A stretch of DNA of 64,000 nucleotides. Origin: Escherichia coli (lineage in GTDB: Bacteria; Pseudomonadota; Gammaproteobacteria; Enterobacterales; Enterobacteriaceae). Position 1 is the first letter of the stretch. Every line of letters begins with the position of its first letter. The position numbers were made by a program, and so were the translations under genes. Under the pieces are notes generated by a model, which made no database searches, was not told where the DNA came from, and saw only the letters and a program-made list of their open reading frames with translations. Below, piece by piece: positions 19,270 to 61,407 of this stretch. The DNA is taken from NCBI RefSeq assembly GCF_003334815.1, contig NZ_QOWO01000013.1; one strand, written 5' to 3'.

Positions 19270-21034
<1,765 letters not shown>

Positions 21035-21379: not shown

Positions 21380-21391
21380 GGCGGTAGCGTG
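21380..21391 (+). promoter_or_regulatory. ops element (GGCGGTAGCGTG) in the JUMPstart-like leader of the waaQ operon
   Basis: Exact 12-nt ops consensus on the coding-sense strand, 48 nt upstream of the waaQ GTG. Confidence 0.8.
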
Positions 21392-21438
21392 CTTTATTCT
21401 GCTTAACTTAACCAGACAATCACACAAAAGAGTCGCTA

Positions 21439-23630: not shown

Positions 23631-24420
23631 ATTAAAAGAGCCGCTTGCCACACTTTGGCGTGGTAAAGATGCTTTTGCAGAGGTCAAAAAACTGAACGGC
23701 GAGGTCTTTCGTGAACTGGAGACTCGTCGTACATTACGCTTTGAACTGTCCGGGAAAAGCTATTTTCTTAAATGGCACAAGGGGACGACATTAAAAGAGA
23801 TTATAAAAAATCTACTCTCATTGCGGATGCCCGTTTTGGGCGCAGACAGAGAGTGGCACGCTATTCATCGCCTGAGTGATGTTGGCGTTGATACAATGAA
23901 GGGCATTGGGTTTGGCGAAAAAGGGTTAAATCCATTAACTCGCGCATCATTTATTATTACCGAAGATCTCACTCCCACAATTAGCCTTGAAGATTATTGT
24001 GCCGATTGGGCAGTCAACCCGCCTGATATACGTGTTAAGCGTATGCTGATCGCACGTGTAGCAACTATGGTGCGTAAAATGCATACTGCAGGGATAAATC
24101 ACCGCGACTGTTACATTTGCCACTTTTTGCTTCATTTGCCATTTACTGGCCGGGAAGATGAATTAAAAATTTCAGTTATCGATCTGCATCGGGCACAGAT
24201 ACGTGCAAAAGTACCGCGCCGCTGGCGCGATAAAGACCTGATTGGTTTATATTTCTCATCAATGAATATTGGCCTGACGCAAAGAGATATCTGGCGATTT
24301 ATGAAGGTTTATTTTGGGATGCCTTTACGCAAAATATTGTCTCTTGAACAGAATTTATTGAACATGGCAAGCGTTAAGGCCGAGCGTATTAAAGAGCGAA
24401 CACAACGCAAAGGATTATAA
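23623..24420 (+). CDS. waaP: LPS core heptose(I) kinase WaaP
   Basis: ORF track 265 aa; kinase-like motif [13 protein letters not shown]; overlaps waaG by 8 nt. Confidence 0.93.
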
Positions 24421-24456
24421 AAATATTTATTAGTATGTACTGGAACTAACTTTATT

Positions 24457-25392
24457 ATGACTATTTATTTTATAAATTGGGTTGCAGATTATGAATTAAA
24501 AATGATTCAGTACCTGAAAAAAAAGTACAAGATAAAAAATATAACAACACCAAAAAAATATAACTGGATTAATAAAAAAATATCAAAAATAGGGATGGAT
24601 AATGCATGGCTGGGGCGATTATTCATCAAGCATTACCTCAATGATATTAAAAAAGATGACATAATTATCATTAATGACAGTGTTGTTAATAAAGGTATCA
24701 ATAAACAAATATTAAAAAATATTAACTGTCATAAAGTTTTGCTTCTAAGAAATACTGTTGGCGAAGATTTTATTCTTGATAACGCGAATTATTTCGATAT
24801 TATATATGATTTTGAGCATAGATTTATAGGGAATGAAAAGATCAAGGCAATAGAACAATTTTTTCCTATAGGAATGGATGAAATTAGAAATTATAGTTTA
24901 TCTGACAAAAATAACAGCCAGCCAATATGTTTTTTCCTTGGTCGTGATAAAGGGCGTCTTCAAATAATTAATGAGTTAGCCGAGAGATTAACAACACTAG
25001 GATGTAAGCTAGATTTTAATGTTGTCAAAGATAAGACATCATCTACGACTTCAAAGTATTTGATTGAAAAACAAATATCTTATGAAGAGAATATTAGAAG
25101 AACATTAAATGCTAATATAATTGTTGATATAACCAAAGAAAACCAATCTGGCTGGACTCTTCGTATACTTGAGGCACTATTTTTCAATAAAAAATTAATT
25201 ACTAATAATATAAATGTATTTGGTTCAGAAATCTATAGTGAATCTCGCTTTTTTATAATAGGTCATGATGATTGGGATAAGTTAGAGTATTTTATTAACT
25301 CATCTGTTAAACCAATGGATTATGATAGTTTATATAAATTCAGTCCAGATAAAATGATGTCAACGATTGTTTCTGATTTTATAGACAAATAA
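24457..25392 (+). CDS. waaS: K-12-type LPS core biosynthesis protein WaaS (RfaS)
   Basis: ORF track 311 aa; very AT-rich, Lys/Asn/Ile-rich; position after waaP typical of the K-12 core type. Confidence 0.8.
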
Positions 25393-25435
25393 AACCGTTA
25401 AAACAGTGAGTTTTACTCAATTAATGAGAGTTTCT

Positions 25436-26515
25436 ATGAAAATAGCGTTTATCGGCGAAGCTGTTTCTGGATTTGGCGGCATGGAAACTGTCATCCGTGA
25501 TGTTATTACTACCTTCAGGCAACAACATATCCAAAGTGAAATGTTTTTCTTTTGTCGTAATGACAAAATGGATAAGGGATGGCTGGAAGGTATTAAATAC
25601 TCATGTTCATTTTCCAATATTCGTTTAGGTTTTTTGCGTCGGGCGAAACATATTCATGCTCTAAGTAAATGGCTTCAGGAGTACCAACCAGATATCGTTA
25701 TTTGTATTGATGTGATCTCCTGCCTGTTTGCCGCAAAAGCACGTAAAAAATCAGGAATTGATATGCCAGTATTTTCATGGCCACATTTTTCTTTAGATCA
25801 CAAAAAACATGCTGAATATATCACCTGTGCCGACTATCATTTAGCAATCAGCTCTGGCATTAAACAGCAAATGATTAATCGAGGTGTAGCAGAATCGACG
25901 ATAAATGTTATTTTTAATCCCGTCGAAACTAAAGACTCAGTCATTCCCGCGCCCGAGGAAGGTGAAACGGCAACGTTTATTTATGTTGGGCGTATGAAAT
26001 TTGAAGGCCAGAAAAGAGTTAAAGACCTGCTTGATGGCTTATCACAAGCGAAAGGTAACTGGAAACTCCATGTATTGGGTGATGGCTCCGATTTCGAAAA
26101 ATGCCAGGCTTATGGTAGAGAATTAAATATTGATGATCGAATTGTCTGGTATGGTTGGCAACAATATCCCTGGGAATTGGTCCAGCAAGATATTGAAAAA
26201 GTGAGTGCGTTATTGCTCACGTCATCTTTTGAAGGTTTCCCAATGACCCTACTTGAAGCCTTGTCGTGGGGGATTCCTTGTATCAGTGCCGATTGTGTCT
26301 CCGGGCCTGCTGACATTATTCAACCTGATGTCAATGGCCATCTGTATCAACCGGGAGATATTGCTGGTTTTGTAACTCTTCTAAATAAATATATAGCAGG
26401 TGAAATTCATATCGAACATGAAAAAATTCCTGCGTCGATCGATGAATTTTACCAATCGAAGTATTACGATAGATTACATAAGGTAATTATTTCTGCTATT
26501 TCCCGGAGGAAATAA
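25436..26515 (+). CDS. waaB: LPS alpha-1,6-galactosyltransferase WaaB (GT4)
   Basis: ORF track 25406..26515 (GTG); conserved start MKIAFIGEAVSGFGGMETV at ATG 25436 (359 aa). Confidence 0.88.
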   Translation: MKIAFIGEAVSGFGGMETVIRDVITTFRQQHIQSEMFFFCRNDKMDKGWLEGIKYSCSFSNIRLGFLRRAKHIHALSKWLQEYQPDIVICIDVISCLFAAKARKKSGIDMPVFSWPHFSLDHKKHAEYITCADYHLAISSGIKQQMINRGVAESTINVIFNPVETKDSVIPAPEEGETATFIYVGRMKFEGQKRVKDLLDGLSQAKGNWKLHVLGDGSDFEKCQAYGRELNIDDRIVWYGWQQYPWELVQQDIEKVSALLLTSSFEGFPMTLLEALSWGIPCISADCVSGPADIIQPDVNGHLYQPGDIAGFVTLLNKYIAGEIHIEHEKIPASIDEFYQSKYYDRLHKVIISAISRRK

Positions 26516-27534
26516 TGCAGCAGGTGTTTTTCCAGGAAACTGAGTTTCTTAATTCAGTTATTGATTATGATCATAAAGTAGAAACAGAAAATCTTTGTCT
26601 GGACATCGCTTATGGAACTGACAAAAACTTTCTATTTGGTTGCGGAATTTCGATTGCTTCAATATTAAAATATAATGAAGGAAGTCGATTGTGTTTCCAT
26701 ATTTTTACTGATTATTTTGGTGATGATGATCGTAAGTATTTTGATGCCCTGGCGTTGCAGTATAAAACCAGAATTAAAATATATCTGATTAATGGTGATC
26801 GACTGCGCTCATTGCCTAGCACTAAGAATTGGACTCATGCAATATATTTTCGTTTTGTTATTGCAGATTACTTTATTAATAAGGCGCCTAAAGTCCTTTA
26901 TCTGGATGCAGATATCATTTGTCAGGGGACTATTGAGCCACTAATTAATTTCTCATTTCCTGACGATAAAGTCGCAATGGTTGTTACAGAAGGGCAAGCT
27001 GACTGGTGGGAAAAACGCGCCCATTCGTTAGGTGTTGCGGGAATTGCTAAAGGTTACTTTAACTCCGGTTTTTTATTGATTAATACTGCCCAATGGGCGG
27101 CTCAGCAGGTTTCTGCACGAGCTATTGCAATGCTAAATGAGCCAGAAATAATCAAAAAAATAACACATCCTGATCAGGATGTGTTAAATATGTTGCTGGC
27201 GGATAAACTTATTTTCGCTGATATTAAATATAACACCCAGTTCAGCTTAAATTATCAACTCAAAGAAAGCTTTATAAACCCAGTAACCAACGATACTATT
27301 TTTATCCATTATATCGGGCCAACCAAGCCCTGGCATGATTGGGCCTGGGATTATCCTGTATCACAAGCCTTTATGGAGGCAAAAAATGCTTCGCCATGGA
27401 AGAATACGGCGTTGCTGAAACCGAACAATAGCAATCAATTAAGATATAGCGCAAAACATATGCTTAAAAAGCATAGATATCTAAAAGGATTTAGCAACTA
27501 TCTTTTTTATTTTATTGAAAAGATAAAGCATTAA
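26515..27534 (+). CDS. waaO: LPS alpha-1,3-glucosyltransferase WaaO (RfaI; GT8)
   Basis: ORF track 339 aa; GT8 DxD region LYLDADIIC; start overlaps waaB stop (TAATG). Confidence 0.88.
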   Translation: MQQVFFQETEFLNSVIDYDHKVETENLCLDIAYGTDKNFLFGCGISIASILKYNEGSRLCFHIFTDYFGDDDRKYFDALALQYKTRIKIYLINGDRLRSLPSTKNWTHAIYFRFVIADYFINKAPKVLYLDADIICQGTIEPLINFSFPDDKVAMVVTEGQADWWEKRAHSLGVAGIAKGYFNSGFLLINTAQWAAQQVSARAIAMLNEPEIIKKITHPDQDVLNMLLADKLIFADIKYNTQFSLNYQLKESFINPVTNDTIFIHYIGPTKPWHDWAWDYPVSQAFMEAKNASPWKNTALLKPNNSNQLRYSAKHMLKKHRYLKGFSNYLFYFIEKIKH

Positions 27535-27573
27535 AACTGGGAAACTATAAAGTAATGATATAAGGGTAGCATT

Positions 27574-28590
27574 GTGGACTCATTTCCTGCCATAGAGATA
27601 GATAAAGTTAAAGCCTGGGATTTTCGGCTAGCTAATATAAATACTTCTGAATGTTTAAATGTTGCCTATGGTGTCGATGCTAATTATCTTGATGGTGTAG
27701 GTGTTTCCATCACATCAATTGTCCTAAATAATCGATATATTAATCTTGATTTTTATATTATTGCTGATGTTTATAATGATGGTTTTTTTCAAAAAATTGC
27801 AAAGCTTGCAGAGCAAAACCAATTAAGAATCACGTTATATAGAATTAACACTGATAAGCTCCAGTGCTTGCCTTGTACACAGGTCTGGTCAAGAGCAATG
27901 TACTTCCGTTTATTTGCATTTCAATTATTGGGTTTAACGCTTGATCGTTTGCTTTATCTTGATGCAGATGTTGTTTGTAAAGGCGATATTAGCCAACTAT
28001 TACATCTGGGTTTAAATGGAGCGGTTGCTGCTGTTGTTAAAGATGTTGAGCCAATGCAAGAAAAGGCGGTATCCAGGTTGTCTGATCCTGAATTACTTGG
28101 GCAGTACTTTAATTCCGGTGTCGTTTATTTAGACTTAAAAAAATGGGCTGACGCAAAACTAACAGAAAAAGCGTTGTCTATTCTTATGAGTAAAGATAAT
28201 GTTTATAAATACCCTGATCAGGATGTTATGAATGTCTTACTGAAAGGGATGACATTATTTTTGCCTCGTGAGTACAATACAATTTATACAATTAAAAGTG
28301 AATTAAAAGACAAAACACATCAAAACTATAAAAAGCTGATTACAGAAAGTACTCTTCTTATTCATTATACAGGTGCAACTAAACCGTGGCACAAATGGGC
28401 AATTTATCCATCGGTAAAATACTATAAAATAGCTTTAGAAAATTCCCCCTGGAAAGATGACTCTCCACGAGATGCGAAATCAATTATTGAATTTAAAAAA
28501 AGATATAAACATCTTTTAGTGCAACATCATTATATCTCAGGAATTATAGCAGGAGTCTGTTATCTTTGCCGAAAATATTACCGTAAATAA
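27574..28590 (+). CDS. waaJ: LPS alpha-1,2-glucosyltransferase WaaJ (RfaJ, also called WaaR; GT8)
   Basis: ORF track 338 aa from GTG 27574; paralogue of preceding GT8 (LYLDADVVC). Confidence 0.86.
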   Translation: MDSFPAIEIDKVKAWDFRLANINTSECLNVAYGVDANYLDGVGVSITSIVLNNRYINLDFYIIADVYNDGFFQKIAKLAEQNQLRITLYRINTDKLQCLPCTQVWSRAMYFRLFAFQLLGLTLDRLLYLDADVVCKGDISQLLHLGLNGAVAAVVKDVEPMQEKAVSRLSDPELLGQYFNSGVVYLDLKKWADAKLTEKALSILMSKDNVYKYPDQDVMNVLLKGMTLFLPREYNTIYTIKSELKDKTHQNYKKLITESTLLIHYTGATKPWHKWAIYPSVKYYKIALENSPWKDDSPRDAKSIIEFKKRYKHLLVQHHYISGIIAGVCYLCRKYYRK

Positions 28591-28607
28591 CATTTAACTG
28601 GTTTATT

Positions 28608-29306
28608 ATGATTCAGAAGAGCAAGATCAAAGACTTGGTTGTTTTTACCGATGAAAACAATTCAAAGTACCTCAATGTATTAAATGACTTCTTGTCTTAT
28701 AATATAAATATCATCAAGGTTTTTCGTTCTATTGATGATACAAAAGTTATGCTTATTGATACCGATTACGGTAAATTGATTCTTAAGGTTTTTTCTCCGA
28801 AAGTTAAGCGTAACGAACGTTTCTTTAAGTCTCTGTTAAAAGGTGATTATTACGAACGCCTTTTTGAGCAAACCCAAAAAGTACGAAATGAAGGGTTAAA
28901 TACACTCAATGACTTTTATTTATTGGCTGAACGGAAAACCTTACGTTTTGTCCATACTTATATCATGATCATCGAGTATATTGATGGCATAGAGTTGTGT
29001 GATATGCCCGATATTGATGATGCGCTAAAAAATAAAATTCAGCAATCAATTAATGCCTTACATCAACATGGCATGGTTTCTGGCGACCCCCATCGTGGTA
29101 ACTTCATTATAAAAAATGGTGAGGTTCGAATTATCGATCTCTCCGGAAAGCGTGCTTCAGCGCAGCGTAAAGCGAAAGATCGTATTGACTTAGAGCGTCA
29201 TTACGGTATTAAAAATGAGATTAGAGATCTAGGCTATTATCTTTTAGTATATCGTAAAAAAATGCGCAATTTTATTCGGCGTTTGAAAGGGAAACCAGCG
29301 CGCTAA
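28608..29306 (+). CDS. waaY: LPS core heptose(II) kinase WaaY
   Basis: ORF track 232 aa; small kinase-like protein (HGMVSGDPHRGNFII). Confidence 0.88.
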   Translation: MIQKSKIKDLVVFTDENNSKYLNVLNDFLSYNINIIKVFRSIDDTKVMLIDTDYGKLILKVFSPKVKRNERFFKSLLKGDYYERLFEQTQKVRNEGLNTLNDFYLLAERKTLRFVHTYIMIIEYIDGIELCDMPDIDDALKNKIQQSINALHQHGMVSGDPHRGNFIIKNGEVRIIDLSGKRASAQRKAKDRIDLERHYGIKNEIRDLGYYLLVYRKKMRNFIRRLKGKPAR

Positions 29307-29376
29307 AAAAAATCCCACAATTACATGTCTTCACCAGGACAGTTTTAAGCGGAGTTATTTATTTCACAGGTTTATC

Positions 29377-30228
29377 ATGAAGAATATTAGATACATTGAC
29401 AAAAAAGATGTTGAAAACCTGATTGAAAATAAAACATCTGATGATGTTATTATTTTTCTTTCGGGCCCTACATCGCAAAAAACACCTTTGTCAGTATTAC
29501 GAACAAAGGATATTATTGCTGTCAATGGTTCTGCGCAATATCTGTTAAGTAATAATATCGTTCCTTTTATATATGTACTTACAGATGTCCGATTTTTACA
29601 TCAGCGTCGTGATGATTTTTATAAATTTAGCCAGAGAAGTCGTTATACCATAGTAAACGTTGACGTTTATGAACACGCTTCCAAAGAAGATAAACTTTAT
29701 ATCCTCCAGAACTGCCTCGTATTACGGTCCTTTTACCGTCGGGAAAAAGGTGGTTTTATAAAGAAGATTAAATTTAATATTTTGAGACAGATTCACAAAG
29801 AACTGCTGATCTCTGTACCGTTGTCTAAAAAAGGTCGTCTGGTTGGATTTTGCAAGGACATTAGTCTTGGTTATTGCTCATGCCATACTATTGCCTTTGC
29901 TGCAATTCAAATCGCATATTCACTTAAGTATGCGCGGATTATTTGTTCTGGTCTTGATTTAACGGGTAGCTGTTCTCGTTTCTATGATGAGAATAAAAAT
30001 CCCATGCCCTCGGAATTAAGTAGGGATTTATTCAAAATATTGCCATTTTTTCGTTTTATGCATGATAATGTAAAAGATATTAATATTTATAATTTATCAG
30101 ATGATACAGCTATTTCTTACGATGTAATTCCATTTATTAAACTTCAAGACATCAGTGCAGAAGAATCAAAAGATATGACAAGAAAAAAAATGCAATATAG
30201 AACTTCAACCGATTCTTATGCTAATTAA
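29377..30228 (+). CDS. waaZ: LPS core biosynthesis protein WaaZ
   Basis: ORF track 283 aa; AT-rich; K-12-type core gene order. Confidence 0.85.
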   Translation: MKNIRYIDKKDVENLIENKTSDDVIIFLSGPTSQKTPLSVLRTKDIIAVNGSAQYLLSNNIVPFIYVLTDVRFLHQRRDDFYKFSQRSRYTIVNVDVYEHASKEDKLYILQNCLVLRSFYRREKGGFIKKIKFNILRQIHKELLISVPLSKKGRLVGFCKDISLGYCSCHTIAFAAIQIAYSLKYARIICSGLDLTGSCSRFYDENKNPMPSELSRDLFKILPFFRFMHDNVKDINIYNLSDDTAISYDVIPFIKLQDISAEESKDMTRKKMQYRTSTDSYAN

Positions 30229-30260
30229 TCATCCTGAAACTAAAATAATATGGTATAAAA

Positions 30261-31334
30261 ATGCGCTTAGGAACTTTTCACAAAAAGAAAAGATTTTATA
30301 TAAACAAAATCAAGATTAATTTCCTTTCTTTTTTATTTCGTAATAAAATAAATAATCAAATTACAGATCCAGCACAAGTTAAATCATGCCTTATTATTCA
30401 TGATAATAATAAACTTGGTGATCTAATTGTATTAAGTTCGATTTATCGTGAACTTTATAGTAAAGGGGTTAAAATAACTCTTCTCACAAATAGAAAGGGT
30501 GGGGAATTTCTCTCTAATAATAAAAATATATTTGAGTTCTGTATTAAAGAATCAACCGGTTTTCTTGAAATGCTTACTCTATGTAAGCATCTGCGGGATT
30601 TACAGTTCGATATTGTATTAGACCCCTTTGAAACTATGCCCTCATTTAAGCATAGCTTAATATTATCAAGTTTAAAAGATTCTTACATTCTGGGTTTTGA
30701 TCATTGGTATAAGCGTTACTATTCATTTTACCATCCCCACGATGAATGTTTAAAAGAACATATGAGTACACGAGCAATAGAAATACTGAAGCATATTTAT
30801 GGTGAGGGTAAATTTTCCACCAACTACGACTTGCATTTACCAGTAGATGTTGAAGATAAAATAAAAGAATTTATTGGAGATACAAGAATAGTCATTATTA
30901 ATCCATTAGGTGCAAAAAAAATATGCCGTCTTACGTTTGAGCAAATAAAAGTTATATATCAAGAAGTGAAAACACACTTTGAAAATTATCGGATTATATT
31001 TACCGGGTTACCGCAAGATTTATTGACAATACCAATACTTGAAATCGAAACACTACCATTTGATGAGTTTATTTATACCGTTGCGTTGACCAAGTATAGT
31101 GATTTTGTCATTTCTGTTGATACAGCTCTTGTTCATATCGCTGCGGCTTATCATAAACCAACGCTTGCATTTTACCCTAATTCACGTACTCCGGAATATC
31201 CCTCGCATTTAATTTGGTCCCCGAATCATCATAAATCTATACAAATAGTATCCCCAACATATACGGTAAAAGATATCGATACTGAAACTTTAACTAATTC
31301 AGTAAAGAGATTAAGTTGTATAGATAAGAAGTGA
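30261..31334 (+). CDS. waaU: LPS heptosyltransferase IV WaaU (RfaK; GT9)
   Basis: ORF track 357 aa; last gene of the plus-strand waaQ operon. Confidence 0.85.
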   Translation: MRLGTFHKKKRFYINKIKINFLSFLFRNKINNQITDPAQVKSCLIIHDNNKLGDLIVLSSIYRELYSKGVKITLLTNRKGGEFLSNNKNIFEFCIKESTGFLEMLTLCKHLRDLQFDIVLDPFETMPSFKHSLILSSLKDSYILGFDHWYKRYYSFYHPHDECLKEHMSTRAIEILKHIYGEGKFSTNYDLHLPVDVEDKIKEFIGDTRIVIINPLGAKKICRLTFEQIKVIYQEVKTHFENYRIIFTGLPQDLLTIPILEIETLPFDEFIYTVALTKYSDFVISVDTALVHIAAAYHKPTLAFYPNSRTPEYPSHLIWSPNHHKSIQIVSPTYTVKDIDTETLTNSVKRLSCIDKK

Positions 31335-31351
31335 GTTTTAACTCACTTCTT
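31326..31351. terminator. perfect 11-bp inverted repeat at the convergent waaU/waaL junction (bidirectional terminator-like hairpin)
   Basis: AAGAAGTGAGT-ttta-ACTCACTTCTT; includes the waaU stop codon and ends 15 nt from the waaL stop. Confidence 0.5.
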
Positions 31352-31365
31352 AAACTTGTTTATTC

Positions 31366-32625
31366 TTAATTAATTGTATTGTTACGATTATTAATGACGA
31401 GTAAGAGGACTATAGCGGATATAATGATAATTGGAATGCTGCGTGCCCATATGATCACATCACTGAGTCCAATCCCCACAATGCCAAGCGTTAATATCAA
31501 CAAACCCAAAGCTCGTTTTTTATATGCTATATAAAATAGTGAAAAATAGAGGAAAAGTGTGGAAAAAATTCCCATCAGACCTTTCAGTGACCCTGCTTCA
31601 ATTATCTCATTATGTAGATGTACGTTAGAAAACTCCAATGCCCCTCTTAGCCTATTGTGTTCTGCAACTAACAAATTCATACTTTCAGCGCGTGACTCTG
31701 CTGATCTAAATGAAAAAGGTGACTTTATGAATATATTTAAACCAATTTCGTACATTGCCAGTCTTGCACCTAGGGAAGTAACACTATTAGCATTGGTATA
31801 ACTGTTTAAGTCATTTAATGCTTCATTATAGCGATTCTGTATTGGTTTATTAAATATAATAACAATGCTAGCTAATATAGCAATTAGTAGAACAATAGAG
31901 GAAGTGAATTTCTTGGGTGATTTATTATAATAAGCTATTAATGCAGCAACACAAATTATAGGGAACAGGAGTAGGGTTGCTCTGGTTTGTGTTAGCGCCA
32001 GAACATAAAGTACCGCGCAACTATTTAATAAAAATAAAAAAGGATGATTTTTCTTAGTATAAAGAATCGCAACGCCACTAACTATCCCTATTAGCATTGT
32101 TGAATATGCTGCTCCTGTTGCCGTTCCTACACCAAAAGAAATGCGGTCATTTTCATGAATGCTATTAATATACATTGCATATCCAGCAATTAGAAATGAC
32201 AGAGAATACAAAGTGTATAATACACTCTCTTTTTTTGATTTTAGCTGGCTAGTTAGTGTCAAGAAAACAATAAAAGAACCAAATATAAATATTTTGGCAG
32301 TATTTAAATAACTATGGTAAGTAGCACGAAATGGCGAATTATCTACTTTAAACGCAGAATACCAAATTAAATCAAGCAAGCCTATTAAAAATATAGAAAG
32401 GGGAAGAATAAGGTTTTTTATATTATAATTTTCTTGTCTGCCACGTAAAATTAGTGACAATAAGCAAACTATAGCAGTGATATTATATATTTTTATGCTG
32501 AAAGTATTATCGACGAATGCAATTATCATTGAAAAAAAACATAATATATAAGTTATTATCTCTAAAATCATTGATGATTTCAGAGTGTAAGGTTTCAATG
32601 AATGAAGTTTAAAGGATGTTAGCAT
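31366..32625 (-). CDS. waaL: O-antigen ligase WaaL
   Basis: ORF track 419 aa; polytopic membrane protein, AT-rich. Confidence 0.88.
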   Translation of the reverse strand: MLTSFKLHSLKPYTLKSSMILEIITYILCFFSMIIAFVDNTFSIKIYNITAIVCLLSLILRGRQENYNIKNLILPLSIFLIGLLDLIWYSAFKVDNSPFRATYHSYLNTAKIFIFGSFIVFLTLTSQLKSKKESVLYTLYSLSFLIAGYAMYINSIHENDRISFGVGTATGAAYSTMLIGIVSGVAILYTKKNHPFLFLLNSCAVLYVLALTQTRATLLLFPIICVAALIAYYNKSPKKFTSSIVLLIAILASIVIIFNKPIQNRYNEALNDLNSYTNANSVTSLGARLAMYEIGLNIFIKSPFSFRSAESRAESMNLLVAEHNRLRGALEFSNVHLHNEIIEAGSLKGLMGIFSTLFLYFSLFYIAYKKRALGLLILTLGIVGIGLSDVIIWARSIPIIIISAIVLLLVINNRNNTIN

Positions 32626-32634
32626 GTTTTACCT

Positions 32635-33594
32635 TTATAATGATGATAACTTTTCCAAAACTGCTTGACTGTTGAGGTTAATTAAATTTTCTCTTGGAGC
32701 CCTACATACCATCTGATTCTTCCCATACCCACCAATTAATCCCGGATCGGTTGGTCCATAAACCGTGATATTGGGTCTATCCAGTGCCGCCGTTAAATGG
32801 CTTAACCCCGTATCCACCGACACTACAAATTTAGCCCCGGCCAGCACGCGGGCAACGCCTTCCAGACTCATCTTCGGCAATACTTCAACATAAGCAAATC
32901 CTTCCGCCAGTCGTTTCGCCCGTTCTTCCTCATGCGGCGCGCCCCACGGAAGTTTAATCCGTATTCCTGAATCAGCCAGTAAACCAATCAATTCTCGCCA
33001 GTGTTCTTCCGGCCAGTGTTTATCATCACGGGTCGTCGCATGAAGAAATACGGCATATTCGCCAGCATCTGTAGGCAGGTTCGTCAGAAAATGCTGTGCG
33101 ATAGCATAATCGCCCTGGGTTTGCGGTTTGCTATAGCCCAAACTTTTGGCAAACAGTTCGCGGGTGCGTTCTACGGCGTGCTGCTGTTTTGCAATATGAT
33201 GCTTACGATTGTAAAACAGGCTGGCTAAAGGTTCGCGAGCGGTTTGCCAGTCCATGCCATGCTTTACGCCATGCGCCAGACGCGTCACCAGCGCCGCGCT
33301 TTTTACCAGCCCCTGAGCGTCGATAACTGCGTCATAGTTCTCTGCTTGTAGCGCTTCACGAAACGCTTTGCGTTCCGCTTTTATGGGGGCCGAGAACCAG
33401 GCTTTACGCCAGCGACGTATTGCCACAGGAATAACTCGCTCAACGGCAGCGTGCCAGGAAGGAATCTGTGCGAACCCTTCTTCCACCACCCAGTCAAACT
33501 TAATCCCTGGGATTGCCTGCTGGGCATCAGTGAGTGCGGGCAACGTATGGAGAACATCGCCCATCGACGATGTTTTAACGATCAAAACCCGCAT
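32635..33594 (-). CDS. waaC: LPS heptosyltransferase I WaaC (GT9)
   Basis: ORF track 319 aa MRVLIVKTSSMGDVLHTLPA... Confidence 0.94.
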   Translation of the reverse strand: MRVLIVKTSSMGDVLHTLPALTDAQQAIPGIKFDWVVEEGFAQIPSWHAAVERVIPVAIRRWRKAWFSAPIKAERKAFREALQAENYDAVIDAQGLVKSAALVTRLAHGVKHGMDWQTAREPLASLFYNRKHHIAKQQHAVERTRELFAKSLGYSKPQTQGDYAIAQHFLTNLPTDAGEYAVFLHATTRDDKHWPEEHWRELIGLLADSGIRIKLPWGAPHEEERAKRLAEGFAYVEVLPKMSLEGVARVLAGAKFVVSVDTGLSHLTAALDRPNITVYGPTDPGLIGGYGKNQMVCRAPRENLINLNSQAVLEKLSSL

Positions 33595-33597
33595 CCG

Positions 33598-34644
33598 TCA
33601 GGCTTCCTCTTGTAACAATAGCGCGTTGAGTTCTTCCAGTACGCGCTGGGGAGTAATGTCGATTAAGCTCTGGTGATAACCCTCCGCAGCGTCACCTTTA
33701 CGCACTTTGTGATAGCCGGTAATCAAACGGATCACGCGCGCTTTATGGGATAGCGGCGGTGTGAAGTCCGGGCTACTCGGACCATACAGGGCAACCAGCG
33801 GACGATTGAGCGCCGCCGCAACATGCATCAGGCCAGAATCGTTAGTGACAATGGCTTTACAGGCTGCAATCAGGATAACCGCTTGATCAAGCTGTGTTTC
33901 CCCCGCCAGGTTCCGACACCATGCCTGCTGCTCGGTATTCAAAGCGGCAAGAATCTCATTGCCCGCTTCATGATCTTTCGCCGAGCCAAACAGAACCACC
34001 TGATAACCTTCATCAATCAGCTGCTTTGCCAGCTCCGCATAGTGGTAGTGTGGCCAGCGTTTTGCCGGACCAAACTCCGCACCCGGGCAAAAACCAATCA
34101 TCGGACGTTCTGATGAAAGCGAAAATTGATTACAGGTATATGATTTTTCACCTTCGCTCACCTGCAACTGCGGCCATAACAATGGCTGCGGCAGATCTTG
34201 TGCTGTGCGCATAATGCCTTTGTCATAGGCCAGCGCTATATAGCGTTCCACCATTAGCGGCCAGGCTTCTTTATCGAGCACGCGTACATCGTTGAGTAAA
34301 CCGTAGCGCATCTCGCCGCGCCAGCCGGTGCGATGAGGAATACCCGCGAAGAAAGGCACTAATGCAGATTTGAAGGAGTTGGGTAAGACGTAGGCGCGGT
34401 CGTAGCGCTTTTCACGCAGGCTATGACCCAGTTTGCGGCGTTCGCCGATTTCCAGCGCTCCGTGACCGAGAGGCATAGGAATAGCTTCGTTAACTTCCGG
34501 CATCCGCGATAATAATGGACGGCACCATGCCGGTGCCATCACATCGATTATCGCCTGGGGATAGCGCGCCTGGAGCGTGCGATAGAGACTTTGCGACATC
34601 ATCATGTCGCCAACCCAAGACGGGCCGATCACCAGTATTTTCAT
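33598..34644 (-). CDS. waaF: LPS heptosyltransferase II WaaF (GT9)
   Basis: ORF track 348 aa MKILVIGPSWVGDMMMSQSL... Confidence 0.94.
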   Translation of the reverse strand: MKILVIGPSWVGDMMMSQSLYRTLQARYPQAIIDVMAPAWCRPLLSRMPEVNEAIPMPLGHGALEIGERRKLGHSLREKRYDRAYVLPNSFKSALVPFFAGIPHRTGWRGEMRYGLLNDVRVLDKEAWPLMVERYIALAYDKGIMRTAQDLPQPLLWPQLQVSEGEKSYTCNQFSLSSERPMIGFCPGAEFGPAKRWPHYHYAELAKQLIDEGYQVVLFGSAKDHEAGNEILAALNTEQQAWCRNLAGETQLDQAVILIAACKAIVTNDSGLMHVAAALNRPLVALYGPSSPDFTPPLSHKARVIRLITGYHKVRKGDAAEGYHQSLIDITPQRVLEELNALLLQEEA

Positions 34645-34653
34645 GCAGAGCTC

Positions 34654-35586
34654 TTATGCGTCGCGATTCAGCCAGGCCATGTATTCCGTTACACCTTCAG
34701 CAACGGTTTTGAACGGTTTGTCGTAACCCGCCGCGCGCAGATTTGTCAGATCTGCCTGAGTGAACGCCTGATAGCGGCCTTTCAGTTTATCCGGGAACGG
34801 AATGTATTCGATCTGGCCTTTCTTGTGATAAGCCAGCGTAGCATCAGCTACCGCCTGGAAGGATTCCGCACGACCAGTACCGAGATTGAAGATGCCGGAA
34901 ACGCCATTTTCCAGGAACCACAGATTCACATCAGCCACGTCGCCCACATAGACGAAGTCGCGTTTGAAGTTCTCGCTACCTTCAAACAGCTTCGGTGATT
35001 CACCGTTGTTAAGCTGGGTGTTGAGATGGAAAGCGACGCTCGCCATGCTGCCTTTATGGCCTTCACGCGGTCCATAAACGTTGAAATAACGGAAGCCAAC
35101 AATCTGCGAGTTCGCTTCAGGCAGGATTTGACGAACATATTCATCAAACAGGAATTTTGAGTAACCGTAGACGTTCAACGGTTTTTCGTACTCGCGGGAT
35201 TCAATAAAGTCGGAGGTGCGTCCGCCGTAGGTGGCTGCGGAAGAAGCGTACAGGAACGGGATTTCACGCTCCAGGCAGTAGTGCAGCAGCTCCTTGGAGT
35301 ATTGATAGTTGTTATCCATCATATACTTGCCGTCCCACTCGGTGGTGGAAGAGCACGCGCCTTCGTGGAAAATCGCTTCGACATCGCCGAACTCTTCGCC
35401 AGCCATAATCTGGATCAGGAAGTCTTCCTTATCCATATAGTCTGCGATATTCAGATCCACCAGGTTCACAAACTTGGTGCCGTCTTTCAGGTTGTCCACC
35501 ACCAGAATATCGGTGATGCCTTTATCATTCAGGGCTTTAACGATGTTGCTGCCGATAAAGCCCGCGCCGCCGGTAACGATGATCAT
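34654..35586 (-). CDS. hldD: ADP-L-glycero-D-manno-heptose 6-epimerase HldD (RfaD)
   Basis: ORF track 310 aa; Rossmann start [16 protein letters not shown]. Confidence 0.95.
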
Positions 35587-38227: not shown

Positions 38228-39253
38228 ATGAAAGCGTTATCCAAACTGAAAGCGGAAGAGGGCATCTGGATGACCGACGTTCCTGTACCGGAACTCGGGC
38301 ATAACGATCTGCTGATTAAAATCCGTAAAACAGCCATCTGCGGGACTGACGTTCACATCTATAACTGGGATGAGTGGTCGCAAAAAACCATCCCGGTGCC
38401 GATGGTCGTGGGCCATGAATATGTCGGTGAAGTGGTAGGTATTGGTCAGGAAGTGAAAGGCTTCAAGATCGGCGATCGCGTTTCTGGCGAAGGCCATATC
38501 ACCTGTGGTCATTGCCGCAACTGTCGTGGTGGTCGTACCCATTTGTGCCGCAACACGATAGGCGTTGGTGTTAATCGCCCGGGCTGCTTTGCCGAATATC
38601 TGGTGATCCCGGCATTCAACGCCTTCAAAATCCCCGACAATATTTCCGATGACTTAGCCGCAATTTTTGATCCCTTCGGTAACGCCGTGCATACCGCGCT
38701 GTCGTTTGATCTGGTGGGCGAAGATGTGCTGGTTTCTGGTGCAGGCCCGATTGGTATTATGGCAGCGGCGGTGGCGAAACACGTTGGTGCACGCAATGTG
38801 GTGATCACTGATGTTAACGAATACCGCCTTGAGCTGGCGCGTAAAATGGGTATCACCCGTGCGGTTAACGTCGCCAAAGAAAATCTCAATGACGTGATGG
38901 CGGAGTTAGGCATGACCGAAGGTTTTGATGTCGGTCTGGAAATGTCCGGTGCGCCGCCAGCGTTTCGTACCATGCTTGACACCATGAACCACGGCGGCCG
39001 TATTGCGATGCTGGGTATTCCGCCGTCTGATATGTCTATCGACTGGACCAAAGTGATCTTTAAAGGCTTGTTCATTAAAGGTATTTACGGTCGTGAGATG
39101 TTTGAAACCTGGTACAAGATGGCGGCGCTGATTCAGTCTGGCCTCGATCTTTCGCCGATCATTACCCATCGTTTCTCTATCGATGATTTCCAGAAGGGCT
39201 TTGACGCTATGCGTTCGGGCCAGTCCGGGAAAGTTATTCTGAGCTGGGATTAA
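38228..39253 (+). CDS. tdh: L-threonine 3-dehydrogenase
   Basis: ORF track 341 aa; zinc-ADH motifs GHEYVGEV and CGHCRNC. Confidence 0.95.
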
Positions 39254-39262
39254 CACGAACAA

Positions 39263-39286
39263 GGGCTGGTATTCCAGCCCTTTTAT
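39263..39286 (+). terminator. intrinsic terminator of kbl-tdh operon
   Basis: GGGCTGG-tatt-CCAGCCC followed by TTTTAT, 10 nt after tdh stop. Confidence 0.7.
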
Positions 39287-39491
39287 CTGAGGATAATCTG
39301 TTAAATATGTAAAATCCTGTCAGTGTAATAAAGAGTTCGTAATTGTGCTGATCTCTTATATAGCTGCTCTCATTATCTCTCTACCCTGAAGTGACTCTCT
39401 CACCTGTAAAAATAATATCTCACAGGCTTAATAGTTTCTTAATACAAAGCCTGTAAAACGTCAGGATAACTTCAGAGGTCGTCGGTAATTT

Positions 39492-40526
39492 ATGATGAAC
39501 AGCACCAATAAACTTAGTGTTATTATTCCGTTATATAATGCGGGCGATGATTTCCGCACTTGTATGGAATCTTTAATTACGCAAACCTGGACTGCTCTGG
39601 AAATCATTATTATTAACGATGGTTCAACGGATAATTCTGTTGAAATAGCAAAGTATTACGCAGAAAACTATCCGCACGTTCGTTTGTTGCATCAGGCGAA
39701 TGCTGGCGCATCGGTGGCGCGTAATCGTGGGATTGAAGTGGCAACGGGCAAATATGTCGCTTTTGTCGATGCTGACGATGAAGTCTATCCCACCATGTAC
39801 GAAACGCTGATGACCATGGCGTTAGAGGACGACCTCGACGTGGCGCAGTGCAACGCTGACTGGTGTTTTCGTGAAACGGGAGAAACCTGGCAATCCATCC
39901 CCACCGATCGCCTTCGCTCAACCGGCGTATTAACCGGCCCGGACTGGCTGCGGATGGGGCTTTCTTCGCGCCGTTGGACTCACGTTGTCTGGATGGGGGT
40001 TTATCGCCGTGATGTTATTGTTAAAAATAACATTAAATTTATTGCCGGATTACATCATCAGGATATTGTCTGGACAACAGAATTCATGTTTAACGCGCTG
40101 CGTGCGCGATATACCGAGCAATCATTATATAAATATTATCTGCATAATACGTCAGTGAGTCGGTTGCATAGACAAGGGAATAAAAACCTTAATTATCAAC
40201 GTCACTATATTAAGATTACCCGCCTGCTGGAGAAATTAAATCGAAATTATGCCGACAAAATTATGATTTATCCGGAATTTCATCAGCAAATAACTTACGA
40301 GGCATTGCGTGTTTGCCATGCGGTGCGCAAAGAGCCGGATATTCTTACCCGCCAACGGATGATTGCCGAGATATTTACTTCCGGTATGTATAAGCGCCTG
40401 ATTACCAATGTGCGCAGCGTGAAGGTCGGTTACCAGGCGTTACTGTGGTCTTTCCGCTTATGGCAATGGCGCGACAAAACGCGGTCGCACCATCGCATTA
40501 CGCGTAGCGCCTTTAATTTGCGCTAG
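39492..40526 (+). CDS. waaH: family 2 glycosyltransferase WaaH (YibD)
   Basis: ORF track 344 aa; GT2 N-terminus LSVIIPLYNAG...IIIINDGSTDNS and DxD (FVDADDE). Confidence 0.88.
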   Translation: MMNSTNKLSVIIPLYNAGDDFRTCMESLITQTWTALEIIIINDGSTDNSVEIAKYYAENYPHVRLLHQANAGASVARNRGIEVATGKYVAFVDADDEVYPTMYETLMTMALEDDLDVAQCNADWCFRETGETWQSIPTDRLRSTGVLTGPDWLRMGLSSRRWTHVVWMGVYRRDVIVKNNIKFIAGLHHQDIVWTTEFMFNALRARYTEQSLYKYYLHNTSVSRLHRQGNKNLNYQRHYIKITRLLEKLNRNYADKIMIYPEFHQQITYEALRVCHAVRKEPDILTRQRMIAEIFTSGMYKRLITNVRSVKVGYQALLWSFRLWQWRDKTRSHHRITRSAFNLR

Positions 40527-41472
40527 CGTTAAACTTCGCCGCTTCGGGCTGTTTGCCCCAGCCTTGCCACTGATGCTGGAAGTAAACGATCAGCGTGCTC
40601 TGGCTGATGCTTTCGCTTAATACTTCAAAGAAGCGATTAGCATAAACAGGTTCTATCGGTTTCTTCGGTTTGCACAGCTTCACGCCACGGAACGGATTAC
40701 GCGGTGCATCAGGCACAGCGTTTTTCGGCGGTGTAGAAGTATCAACCTGCGGTTCATTCAGCAAGCTGCTGGCTTTCACCAGCGTAATGTCTGGCGGCAG
40801 GTTATAAACCATCTGTTGCAACACGCGTACCGTTGCAGGGTGAGGATGCCCAATGGCAATGGTCGAACCGTTGCGACGCGCCAGGTCAATTGCGCGATTA
40901 AATTGCACACGGATGTCCGCTTCATTTTGCGAATCGTCGAGGAATACCTTCCGTTTGATCACCTTCACGCCAGTGCCTTGCGCGGCGCGCATCGCCTGGG
41001 TATTACCGATGGTTACGCTGTCGAGGAAGTAAAGATTGTAACGCTCCAGCGCCTGCATCACTTTCTGCATACCAAACAGGTTAGAGGTCATCTTGCTGCC
41101 CATGTGGTTGTTGATCCCCACGGCATAGGGCACGTTATTGACCGCACTACGAATAATGCGCTCAATTTCGTCGCTGCTCATCTCCGGGCGTAGCGTATTT
41201 TTCTCCAGCGGCTGTTTACTCAACGGTGCCATCGGGAGATGAATCAACACTTCGTGCCCGCTGTTATGCGCTTTGGTCGCCATCTCTCTGGCGTGCGGTG
41301 AATCGGGTAATACAGCGACGGAGATAGCGGAAGGCATCGCCAGCACCTGGTTTTCGTTGTGCGGGCGATACCCAAAATCATCAATGACGATGGCAAGTTT
41401 GCCAGCAAGTACGGGGGAGGAGAGCGCCAACAGAGCGGCAAATGCAAGAACGTTACGACGAAATGGAAACAA
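40513..41472 (-). CDS. yibQ: divergent polysaccharide deacetylase family protein YibQ
   Basis: ORF track 319 aa with N-terminal signal-like hydrophobic segment; 3' end overlaps waaH 3' end by 14 nt. Confidence 0.82.
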   Translation of the reverse strand: MFPFRRNVLAFAALLALSSPVLAGKLAIVIDDFGYRPHNENQVLAMPSAISVAVLPDSPHAREMATKAHNSGHEVLIHLPMAPLSKQPLEKNTLRPEMSSDEIERIIRSAVNNVPYAVGINNHMGSKMTSNLFGMQKVMQALERYNLYFLDSVTIGNTQAMRAAQGTGVKVIKRKVFLDDSQNEADIRVQFNRAIDLARRNGSTIAIGHPHPATVRVLQQMVYNLPPDITLVKASSLLNEPQVDTSTPPKNAVPDAPRNPFRGVKLCKPKKPIEPVYANRFFEVLSESISQSTLIVYFQHQWQGWGKQPEAAKFNASAN

Positions 41473-41475
41473 AAC

Positions 41476-42735
41476 TTATCTTCCCAACCACGGCTGTGGA
41501 TTGACCGCCTGACCCTGGCGGCGAATTTCGAAATAGAGTGAAGGCCGACCCTGACCGCCACTGCTGCCCACCAGTGCAATCGGCTGGCCCGCGCGAACCT
41601 GCGAACCAACGCTCACCAGTGCGCTCTGATTATAGCCGTAAAGACTCATGTCGCCTTTACCATGCTCAACCACCACCACCAGACCGTAGCCTTGCAGCCA
41701 GTCAGCCAGAATCACCCGACCGTCGGCAATCGCTTTAACTTCAGTACCTTCAGAAGCACCGATAACCATACCTTTCCAGCGTAATTCACCCTGTAGCTGT
41801 TCGCCATAGCGATGCAGCGTCGGCCCGCGAACCGGCCAGAATGCCTGACCACGCGGCGCGCCCAGACCACCGGTACGGGACATCAGCGATTTTTCGCTTT
41901 CGGTCGGTTTGTAGGTGGTGCCTTTGCGCGTCGCTTCTTTCTGGCGGTCGCGAACCGCCTGGGCCTCACGTGCTTCTCGTTCTGCACGCGCTTTCGCCGC
42001 GGCTTCCGCACGGGCAATGCTGTTACGCAGACGGGATTCGTTGGCGCGCAGCTCGCTCAACTGTTGCTGACCTTGCTGGATGGAAGACTCCAGCCCTGCC
42101 AGCGTCTTTTTACGCTCGTTCAGCGCCTGAGTCAGTTTCGCCTGTTGGGCGCGCTGCTCATATAACAGCGTTTGTTGCTCGCTCTGTTTCTCTTCCAGTT
42201 CAGCACGCTGCATGGCGACTTCTTCACGCGTTTGCTTCAACTGGGCAATGGTTTCTTGTCGCGCCTGGTTGAGATAGCCGAAATAAGCCTGTAAACGCTG
42301 TCCACGCTGGCTTTCTTCACCGCTGAGAATCAGCTGAATACCGGTATGCTCGCCCTGACGGAATGCGGCATCCAGTTGTGCGGCGAGGCTGCGCTCCTGG
42401 GCGGCTTTTTGCTGCTCCAGTTTGGCAATCGACGCGTTCATCTCATCAATCTGTTTATTGAGTTGATTGAGCGTGTTTTGCGTTTCGCGCAGCTTACGGG
42501 TGGCTTCAGAGATCGCTTCTTCCTGCTTTTTCAATTGTGCGAGCAGGCTTGCGCGTTGTTGTTGCTTTTGGCGTACCGCGCGCTCTTTTGCGGCGATGTC
42601 AGCCTGAATAGATTTGAGTTGGTCACGCTCATCCGCGTGGGCGGAAAAGGCGCACAACAATACGCCAGCGCTAAGAACGCTGGCGTAGATGATGGGCCTG
42701 ATTGCAAACCTGCGCGGTTTCACGGCCCGTGTCAT
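41476..42735 (-). CDS. envC: murein hydrolase activator EnvC (coiled coil + LytM/M23-like domain)
   Basis: ORF track 41476..42759; start MTRAVKPRR at ATG 42735 (419 aa); Gln/Ala-rich coiled coil. Confidence 0.9.
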   Translation of the reverse strand: MTRAVKPRRFAIRPIIYASVLSAGVLLCAFSAHADERDQLKSIQADIAAKERAVRQKQQQRASLLAQLKKQEEAISEATRKLRETQNTLNQLNKQIDEMNASIAKLEQQKAAQERSLAAQLDAAFRQGEHTGIQLILSGEESQRGQRLQAYFGYLNQARQETIAQLKQTREEVAMQRAELEEKQSEQQTLLYEQRAQQAKLTQALNERKKTLAGLESSIQQGQQQLSELRANESRLRNSIARAEAAAKARAEREAREAQAVRDRQKEATRKGTTYKPTESEKSLMSRTGGLGAPRGQAFWPVRGPTLHRYGEQLQGELRWKGMVIGASEGTEVKAIADGRVILADWLQGYGLVVVVEHGKGDMSLYGYNQSALVSVGSQVRAGQPIALVGSSGGQGRPSLYFEIRRQGQAVNPQPWLGR

Positions 42736-42768
42736 GGTATTAATCGCCTTTCCCCTCATGGGGAGGGA

Positions 42769-44313
42769 TTATTCCACGATGAACAGCGGCTTACCAGTCA
42801 TCTCTTGCGGGATTTCCATACCCATCAGCGACAACATGGTCGGCGCGATGTCAGAAAGTTTGCCGCCTTCAACCGCTTTCACGTTCTTATCACCAACGTA
42901 AATCAGCGGAACTGGCAGGTTGGTGTGTGCCGTGTGTGCCTGACCCGTTGCCGGATCGCGCATCTGCTCAGCGTTACCGTGGTCAGCGGTGATCAGCAGT
43001 TGTCCACCCACGGACTCAACCGCTTTCGCGACTTCTTCCACGCAGTGATCCAGCGCTTCAACCGCTTTAACCGCCGCTTCCATCACCCCGGTGTGACCTA
43101 CCATGTCGCCGTTCGGATAGTTACAGATGATGGTGTCGTATTTGCCGCTCTTGATGGCCGCAACCAGTTTTTCGGTCAGCTCTGCGGAGCTCATTTCCGG
43201 TTGCAGATCGTAGGTAGCCACTTTCGGTGAGTTGATCAGAATGCGATCTTCGCCTTTGAACGACTCTTCTACGCCACCGTTGAAGAAGAAAGTAACGTGG
43301 GCATATTTTTCGGTTTCGGAAATACGCAACTGAGTTTTGTCGTTTTTCGCCATCCACTCGCCGAAGGTGTTAACCAGGGAAGCGGGTGGGTAAGCAACCG
43401 CAGTTTTGATGTCAGCGGCGTATTCGGTCAGCATCACGAAATCGACGTTAACCACTTTCTTACGCGCGAAGCCATCGAAATCAGCGTTCACGAAAGCACG
43501 AGTGATTTCACGCGCGCGGTCAGCACGGAAGTTCATGAAAATCAGTGCATCGCCGTCTTCCATTGCCGCGTCTGGCTGACCTTCAGCACGGATAACGGTC
43601 GCTTTCACGAATTCATCATTTTCGTCGCGAGCATAAGCAGCCTGCAAACCAGCAACGGCGGTATCGGCCTGGAACTCGCCCTGCGCCAGAGTCAGCAGGT
43701 CATAAGCTTTTTCTACGCGATCCCAACGGTTATCGCGGTCCATCGCGTAGTAACGACCAATGATGGACGCTACGCGGCCTTTGCCCAGCGCGGCAAATTT
43801 TTCTTCGAATTTTTTCAGCGAGGATTCAGCACTGCGCGGCGGAGTGTCGCGACCGTCAAGGAATGCGTGCAGGTAGATTTTTTCTGCGCCGCGTTCAGCT
43901 GCCAGTTCTACCATCGCCATGATGTGATCTTCGTGGCTGTGTACGCCGCCTGCGGAGAGCAGACCCATAATGTGTACCGCTTTGCCTGCGTTTTTCGCTT
44001 TATCTACCGCGCCAGTCAGCACCGGATTAGCAAAGAAAGCGCGATCTTTGATTTCAACGTCCAGACGAGTCAGGTCCTGATACACGATGCGGCCGGCACC
44101 CAGGTTAACGTGGCCTACTTCGGAGTTACCCATCTGACGGTCAGGCAGACCGACTTCCAGACCGGAAGCGTCGATTAGGGTATGCGGACGATTGGCCCAC
44201 AGTGCATCCATTACCGGGGTTTTAGCACTAAAAATGGCGTTATCCTGCTGTTCTTCGCGATAGCCATAGCCATCCAGAATCACCAGTACCATAGGTTTTT
44301 TAGAAACCAACAT
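42769..44313 (-). CDS. gpmM: 2,3-bisphosphoglycerate-independent phosphoglycerate mutase
   Basis: ORF track 42769..44457; conserved start [19 protein letters not shown] at ATG 44313 (514 aa). Confidence 0.94.
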
Positions 44314-60228: not shown

Positions 60229-60316
60229 ATCTAACTCTCTCTGAAATTGTCTTGCAGTAACTGCACTCGCAGAAATAGAGAAAAAAATACAATTGTTAAT
60301 AACCTTGCCATATTTT

Positions 60317-60925: not shown

Positions 60926-60934
60926 CTATTGCTT

Positions 60935-61396: not shown

Positions 61397-61407
61397 ACAT
61401 CTACAAC

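Follow-up and report, generated by a model that had tools for sequence, protein, structure and literature searches.

The waaH and yibQ coding sequences

The window analysed here, a 64-kb stretch of Escherichia coli DNA (contig NZ_QOWO01000013.1), carries the genes waaH (yibD) and yibQ (sddA) on opposite strands, facing each other at their 3' ends. An earlier note, written from the sequence alone, had reported that the two genes share 14 nt at their stop codons and had suggested that each is transcribed into the other, with mutual antisense interference as a possible result. The overlap is confirmed at 40513-40526 by the open reading frame (ORF) list, the raw sequence and RefSeq (Table 1). It is real, species-wide and already annotated in every E. 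coli annotation. Taken together, the data make it probable that it is an incidental tail-to-tail overlap of two unrelated, well-characterised genes, arising from tight packing, with transcripts ended by Rho and with no regulatory role.

Profile matches uphold the identities proposed for the products, a GT2 glycosyltransferase and a deacetylase-like protein. WaaH scores 633 bits against NCBIfam PRK10073 (cut-off 423) and matches the Pfam family Glycos_transf_2 (PF00535) over residues 9-137 (3.6e-38), while YibQ matches PF04748 ('divergent polysaccharide deacetylase') over residues 28-238 (5.5e-76). WaaH is the UDP-glucuronate:lipopolysaccharide (LPS)(HepIII) glycosyltransferase, which adds glucuronic acid onto the inner-core HepIII under phosphate limitation (PMC6358824). 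YibQ, since renamed SddA, deacetylates the denuded glycan strands of septal peptidoglycan (10.1101/2025.02.18.638797 / PMC12440217). Despite its strong PF04748 match, YibQ/SddA (window:40516-41472:-) has no NCBIfam match at E <= 0.001; the curated NCBIfam naming library has no model for SddA, now a characterised enzyme. Both genes were described as encoding envelope carbohydrate enzymes lying apart from the main waa cluster. The location is correct, as yibB, kbl and tdh separate waaH from waaA-rfaD (19756-35586), and both are envelope genes. The kinship between them is weak, however, as SddA acts on peptidoglycan and WaaH on LPS. Given that YibQ is the septal peptidoglycan deacetylase, there is no functional link between it and LPS; the two enzymes act on different polymers and are functionally unlinked.

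The 14 nt encode the ends of both proteins (...FNLR in WaaH, ...ASAN in YibQ) and lie outside both conserved domains, past the end of the WaaH PRK10073 profile (residue 334) and far past the YibQ PF04748 domain. RefSeq annotates the identical two coding sequences (CDSs) with the identical overlap in NZ_CP068279.1, a genome that is 100% identical here. Of 5426 complete E. coli genomes, 5425 match a 2.6-kb query around the junction, a number of them with 100% identity, and the 110 nt around the junction are single copy, always chromosomal, in each of the same number (5425/5426). A sequencing error at 40513-40526 is ruled out by this presence in thousands of independent genomes. It is likewise scarcely credible that one CDS end is wrong and that the proteins do not truly overlap. 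Neither C-terminal tail falls within its family profile and the YibQ tail is hypervariable, which would suit such an artefact, but the stops are fixed by reading frame, and each frame runs on from upstream sequence that is strongly conserved, with no earlier in-frame stop. Moreover, full-length SddA (1-319) was cloned and C-terminally tagged (10.1101/2025.02.18.638797 / PMC12440217), and the lengths of waaH and yibQ are constant in many genera.

The 14-nt overlap is not beyond chance expectation. The waaH-antisense frame read by the yibQ tail has 23 stops in 344 codons, and so the four-codon penetration of yibQ is unremarkable. Back-up stops follow in frame one codon further on for waaH and four codons further on for yibQ. 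Two of the nine convergent annotated pairs in the window overlap (waaH/yibQ by 14 nt, ligB/yicG by 4 nt), and five further pairs are spaced by merely 11-52 nt.

Table 1. Features at and around the waaH/yibQ junction, in window coordinates.
Feature	Position	Strand	Description and source
waaH (yibD) CDS	39492..40526	+	344 aa; stop TAG 40524-40526; ORF listing, raw sequence, RefSeq
yibQ (sddA) CDS	40513..41472	-	319 aa; TTG start; stop TAA 40515-40513; ORF listing, raw sequence, RefSeq
CDS overlap, 14 nt	40513..40526	both	last 4 codons and stop of each gene
Imperfect palindrome	40500..40529	both	10 bp, one bulge, 9-nt loop; spans the overlap; folds on both strands; U-tract on neither side
13-bp hairpin	40463..40496	-	yibQ-strand RNA, 17-50 nt past yibQ stop; no U-tract; candidate 3' protective or pause structure
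Rho termination region, yibQ strand	40189 (NC_000913.3 3789384 +)	-	324 nt past yibQ stop, antisense inside waaH; PMC7815308 supplementary file 2
Rho termination region, waaH strand	39531 (NC_000913.3 3790042 -)	+	39 nt into waaH ORF; PMC7815308 supplementary file 2
Two p19-captured, RNase III-cut 21-bp duplexes	41219-41239, 41285-41305	both	inside yibQ; PMC7373196 Table S3, mapped to the window
kbl-tdh intrinsic terminator	39261..39286	+	9-bp GC-rich stem and U-tract (39261-39282); fold -18 kcal/mol, z = -4.5
tdh-waaH intergenic region	39287..39491	+	contains the phosphate-starvation-inducible waaH (yibD) promoter; cited induction data, promoter placed by region only
envC	41476-42735	-	upstream gene in the operon ending with yibQ; annotation
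gpmM	42769-44313	-	upstream gene in the operon ending with yibQ; annotation

A probable accessory gene beside the end of a core operon

The two genes differ in their setting. sddA is the last gene of the co-transcribed gpmM-envC-sddA operon, the C-terminal residues 239-319 of its product are predicted to be disordered, and an excess of SddA over EnvC leads to cell chaining (10.1101/2025.02.18.638797 / PMC12440217). The TTG start of yibQ lies 3 nt past the envC stop (41476-41478), a layout suited to translational coupling within the operon. The longest ORF of envC begins at an ATG at 42759 and encodes 427 aa; the form adopted by RefSeq and in the SddA paper starts at 42735 and has 419 aa.

waaH is expressed from yibDp, which serves as a phosphate-depletion-inducible expression element (10.1101/820787). 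Its expression is PhoB-dependent, yet no PhoB signal was seen upstream of it by chromatin immunoprecipitation sequencing, and its regulation was called indirect (PMC10294691). The GC content of waaH is 33-40% in segments (window 39250-39700 and 40000-40300) as against 50-56% in its neighbours, and its last ~230 nt are yibQ-like at 51-56%. As judged from base composition, the low-GC segments fit a horizontal origin for most of waaH.

Damaged copies of waaH are found in several strains, through a Mu-like prophage, IS1, a frameshift or a C-terminal truncation, and yibQ is intact. In strain FDAARGOS_1267 (NZ_CP069522.1, 1-4186) waaH is interrupted by a Mu-like prophage that carries genes of the Gam, Mor and gp16 families, and only the last ~70 codons of waaH remain beside an intact yibQ. 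waaH is annotated as frameshifted in one O157:H7 strain and lacks its C-terminus in ETEC1748 (L057 527-1562; L058 691-1512), and strain HL15 has an IS1 insertion near waaH (match H1, NZ_CP079770.1). yibQ has its full 960 nt in every checked strain among the O157:H7, ETEC1748 and HL15 cases. This pattern of damaged waaH and intact yibQ fits an accessory gene set against the end of a core operon.

Spacing of waaH and yibQ across enterobacterial genera

A scan with WaaH, using one genome per species, gave 52 loci. Synteny of tdh-waaH-yibQ-envC, whole or partial, was kept in 36 of them, from at least 10 enterobacterial genera, and for these the spacing of waaH and yibQ was computed by extending both reading frames to their stops. 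The extremes are a gap of 113 nt and an overlap of 14 nt. The latter is present at 18 loci from at least seven genera: Escherichia, Citrobacter amalonaticus, C. sedlakii and one C. youngae type, Leclercia, Salmonella arizonae and diarizonae, Cedecea, Silvania, and one Enterobacter. The stops abut (0 nt) in the Citrobacter freundii complex, overlap by 4 nt in Kluyvera, Siccibacter turicensis and one metagenome-assembled genome, and are separated by gaps of 10-113 nt in Superficieibacter, Pseudocitrobacter and Siccibacter colletis.

At all loci with the 14-nt overlap, the stop of yibQ is read, in reverse complement, from the junction between two conserved WaaH codons. The junction xTT-AAT (Leu/Phe/Ile-Asn) gives TAA in yibQ, and CTC-AAT in Salmonella gives TGA. 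The WaaH tail (A-L/F/I-N-L) is conserved and sets the yibQ stop at a constant position, while the YibQ tail past the conserved QWQGW (residues 301-305) is hypervariable in both sequence and length. Conservation of the 14-nt geometry can thus be accounted for by conservation of the WaaH protein and the lack of indels, and selection on the overlap is not needed.

Some genera have structures between the genes. At the waaH/yibQ junction of the Siccibacter loci (L018 ~4536-4575; L029 ~1462-1505) there is a canonical bidirectional hairpin-plus-U terminator, and in Pseudocitrobacter (L015, L030, 3' of waaH) the 72-113-nt spacer holds a GC-rich palindrome resembling a repetitive extragenic palindromic (REP) element. 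The Escherichia junction has neither. As Siccibacter has an intergenic terminator, such a terminator is compatible with the waaH-yibQ gene order, and Escherichia is simply without one.

In Citrobacter (L007-L009 versus L019-L027 and L042), two strongly divergent waaH alleles occur, with ~82% and ~67% identity to E. coli WaaH. Both occupy the same tdh-yibQ site, including in two C. youngae strains, with Tdh, YibQ and EnvC equally conserved, and the length of the YibQ tail tracks the waaH type. Such sequence comparisons suggest a cassette-like replacement of Citrobacter waaH, with a breakpoint near the sequence coding for QWQGW.

Transcript ends at the junction

In a consensus scan, neither strand had an intrinsic terminator at the junction or close to it. 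The sole candidate from the scan, at 40589-40608, has a weak stem of 6 bp and a poor T-tail, and the count of terminator-like sites was not above that in shuffled sequences; Rfam at a permissive threshold gave no match in 38500-43000. Since there is no room for an intrinsic terminator between the genes, each transcript must end inside the other gene. Upstream of waaH, a 'primary' Term-seq 3' end of tdh lies at window 39286 (PMC7815308 supplementary file 1), and the tdh terminator is the upstream boundary of the waaH transcription unit. The SMRT-Cappable-seq supplements have no entry for waaH, yibQ, yibD or envC.

Published ends were placed on the window (w) from NC_000913.3 positions (x) by x = 3829573 - w, calibrated on three Term-seq anchors. 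The Rho positions of Adams et al. derive from 800-nt windows and are therefore approximate (PMC7815308). At the region on the yibQ strand, 3789384(+), upstream/downstream reads were 106/28 without bicyclomycin (BCM) and 187/274 with it (Rho score 5.5, p = 1.8e-15); at the region on the waaH strand, 3790042(-), they were 95/20 and 154/187 (Rho score 5.8, p = 7e-13) (PMC7815308). BCM thus raises read-through on both strands at waaH/yibQ (PMC7815308). Given the region on the yibQ strand, the operon transcript likely crosses the overlap and ends a few hundred nucleotides into waaH antisense. The composition of this RNA is compatible with Rho action, the C/G ratio being modestly raised at 1.25-1.38 between 40 and 160 nt 3' of the yibQ stop, ahead of a U-rich segment. 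On the waaH strand, a search for Rho utilization (rut) sequence found no clear stretch of C>G 3' of waaH until beyond +360 nt.

In lysogeny broth (LB), the Rho region at the start of waaH keeps plus-strand transcription out of the body of waaH and hence out of yibQ. This region may represent premature termination of waaH or the clean-up of read-through from the tdh terminator, which the 800-nt windows cannot separate. The proposal that each gene is transcribed into the other is supported for the yibQ strand, where the Rho region lies 324 nt into waaH antisense and the junction has no intrinsic terminator; for the waaH strand it is plausible. Overlap of the yibQ-strand transcript with waaH is supported, with Rho as the terminating factor. 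Such overlap is common in E. coli, where 276 of 370 convergent operons (75%) overlap, by 286 nt on average (PMC4161252).

The junction also holds two hairpins, one spanning the overlap and the other just past the yibQ stop (Table 1). In the latter, the waaH strand has A.C mismatches in place of two G.U pairs, and the hairpin is weaker there. The 146-nt minus-strand fold at the junction has -56.2 kcal/mol (z = -3.15). These palindromes could be an overlapping bidirectional terminator of the kind reported by Ju et al. 2019, in which hairpins without a U-tract pause polymerases moving both ways, so that head-on collisions and trailing polymerases end both transcripts near the overlap. The exact placement of the hairpins at the junction (40500-40529 on both strands and the 13-bp stem on the yibQ strand), the stability of the minus-strand fold and a published description of the model (10.1101/2022.10.23.513370) agree with this. 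However, read-through on the yibQ strand is BCM-sensitive and the drop in coverage is ~0.3 kb past the hairpins, whereas that class of terminators is described as Rho-independent (10.1101/2022.10.23.513370). The Adams et al. lists contain no Term-seq 3' end in waaH or yibQ (PMC7815308). Termination by collision, furthermore, requires heavy transcription in both directions, and this is improbable in rich medium, where waaH expression is low.

Outside Escherichia the hairpins are only partly conserved. In the 13-bp hairpin the inner pairs are invariant and the outer pairs are broken in many genera. Among the 18 sequences of the 14-nt group, 75.6% of cells are paired as against 24-44% in slid controls, for a structure that is derived from E. 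coli and has both arms coding. Three pairs show double changes in the same 18 sequences; the hairpins score 0.130 for covariation, and one slid control reaches 0.146. A structural role for the junction hairpins is unproven, and we regard a bidirectional terminator at this junction as quite unlikely.

Expression of waaH and the gpmM-envC-sddA operon

Mutual interference predicts reciprocal changes in the expression of the two genes. The expression test compared wild type with a phoB deletion in low phosphate by ScriptSeq RNA-seq, using a library that we take to be directional. In this comparison (Fitzgerald et al., PMC10294691, Table S1), normalised counts of waaH were 13,872/11,547 in wild type and 3,032/2,925 in the phoB deletion (log2 2.1, ~4-fold), and those of envC were 2,088/2,432 and 2,848/3,194 (log2 -0.4, q = 0.19). 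The rows of this table, sorted by q and listed up to q = 0.569, do not include yibQ. As a ~4-fold swing in the several-fold more abundant waaH leaves envC at -0.4 log2, the operon RNA is essentially unchanged. The reciprocal change in expression, in place of which independence would speak against interference, was thus not seen between wild type and the phoB deletion in this one condition, and the mutual antisense interference suggested in the earlier note is unsupported by these values. At the RNA level, in the one condition covered, mutually antagonistic regulation of waaH and yibQ is not supported. Because the RNA-seq covers a 4-fold difference in waaH at the RNA level only, a modest or post-transcriptional effect on SddA is possible.

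A conditional form of regulation may still be envisaged, in which the pair acts as a convergent excludon: waaH read-through into sddA and envC in phosphate-starved cells would lower SddA, and perhaps EnvC, through polymerase collision and RNase III cleavage of duplex RNA, and operon transcription running ~0.3 kb into waaH would damp basal waaH expression. The lack of a terminator between the genes, the yibQ-strand transcript reaching ~324 nt into waaH antisense and the RNase III duplexes within yibQ are what such an arrangement would have. In low phosphate, counts of waaH (~12,700) exceed those of envC (~2,260), and envC is at -0.4 log2 in wild type versus the phoB deletion. Tight packing is conserved across genera, and the SddA:EnvC balance is physiologically important. 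On the other side, the envC change is non-significant and yibQ is absent from the listed rows. In the core E. coli excludome compiled with ExcludonFinder for MG1655 from 58 transcriptomes, waaH, yibQ and yibD are absent from the 165 convergent pairs, which do contain three other pairs from this window, yicG-ligB, mtlR-yibT and waaL-yibX (PMC12288877 Table 1). In some genera, moreover, the two genes are separated by a true terminator or by a REP-like element. Given the above, we consider a conditional excludon unlikely.

The RNase III-cut duplexes sit inside yibQ, 690-780 nt 3' of the waaH stop, and as they map there, plus-strand antisense RNA exists in yibQ. They do not distinguish this gene, however, as 87% of E. 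coli genes give p19 duplexes at >=1 read per million (RPM) (Huang et al. 2020, PMC7373196). Read-through from waaH is one possible source of the antisense RNA, an internal promoter another. In a promoter scan, the stretch from the waaH stop to the duplex sites had no plus-strand promoter-like site; the lone plus-strand site was inside waaH, at 40169-40196, too weak a result to assign an origin to the antisense RNA.

A probably incidental overlap

The most probable explanation, then, is tight packing. On this view waaH, a low-GC, dispensable LPS-modification gene, is wedged between tdh and the last gene of the gpmM-envC-sddA operon, with no spacer from yibQ. The C-terminal tail of YibQ, disordered and hypervariable, would extend to the first in-frame stop, and that stop arises on the opposite strand from a conserved codon junction in WaaH (xTT-AAT, whose TTA reads TAA in reverse complement). 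The yibQ-strand transcript would cross the overlap and be stopped by Rho ~0.3 kb into waaH antisense, and in rich medium Rho would also halt plus-strand transcription near the waaH 5' end, limiting antisense RNA into yibQ. We infer that the duplex RNA stems from waaH read-through and that the overlap is without a regulatory role.

Several observations weigh against an incidental overlap. The exact 14-nt geometry is kept in at least seven genera, down to 77% WaaH identity, and selection for overlapping transcripts might be the reason that spacing is near zero at nearly every one of the 36 loci. Expression of waaH is very low in LB, the medium of the Rho experiments. With waaH 4-fold higher, envC shows a nominal drop of 25%, and the expression evidence consists of one perturbation at the RNA level, with the yibQ value inferred from its absence among the listed rows. 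Finally, the duplex RNAs in yibQ show sense and antisense RNAs meeting. It may be proposed that waaH read-through is a phosphate-starvation-specific antisense brake on sddA, shifting SddA:EnvC during LPS core remodelling, with near-zero spacing across Enterobacteriaceae then being selected, although we hold this to be very unlikely.

In its present form, the finding itself matters little: the overlap is annotated everywhere, convergent transcript overlap is the rule in E. coli, and the pair is without sign of reciprocal regulation. The useful outcome is a corrected context for the locus, as YibQ is the peptidoglycan deacetylase SddA, and the amount of this enzyme relative to EnvC influences cell separation. 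One version of the regulatory idea is worth testing, namely that induction of waaH on phosphate starvation lowers SddA relative to EnvC. If an antisense brake did operate, the SddA:EnvC ratio, which controls daughter-cell separation, would shift when the LPS core is remodelled.

Other features of the window

The second overlapping pair of the window is formed by ligB (8402-10084, +) and yicG (10081-10698, -), which have a 4-nt convergent CDS overlap at 10081-10084 and are core-listed as a convergent excludon. The end of the window (~59790-64000) holds RHS-element remnants, namely a frameshifted Imm57 immunity gene, two RHS core pseudogenes, yibG, yibA and an RHS core protein.

Comparison with known systems

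Short convergent CDS overlaps such as ligB/yicG resemble waaH/yibQ in that the genes are on opposite strands, share a few 3' codons, derive a stop from the reverse complement of the terminal codons of the partner and have no intergenic terminator. Apart from its length, 14 nt as against 4 nt in ligB/yicG, the waaH/yibQ overlap does not differ from them.

Convergent excludons (Sesto et al. 2013; PMC12288877) share with waaH/yibQ the 3'-overlapping transcripts, the detectable duplex RNA and the very short or negative intergenic distance. Unlike these, waaH/yibQ is without opposing expression in the one data set that perturbs waaH and is not core-listed. Overlapping bidirectional terminators (Ju et al. 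2019; 10.1101/2022.10.23.513370) likewise have palindromic hairpins lacking a U-tract at the point of convergence; at waaH/yibQ, in contrast, read-through is sensitive to Rho, and the published data give no discrete 3' ends at the hairpins.

With Rho-dependent termination of convergent operons (PMC7815308, PMC4161252), waaH/yibQ shares BCM-sensitive read-through, an end antisense to the neighbouring gene and a transcript overlap of a few hundred nucleotides. In the Adams et al. data (PMC7815308), Rho ends antisense to a neighbour outnumber every other class of Rho region, and the 324 nt found here are near the 286-nt mean for convergent operons (PMC4161252). waaH/yibQ shows no notable difference from this class, and the locus is itself an entry in the Adams et al. 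data set (PMC7815308).

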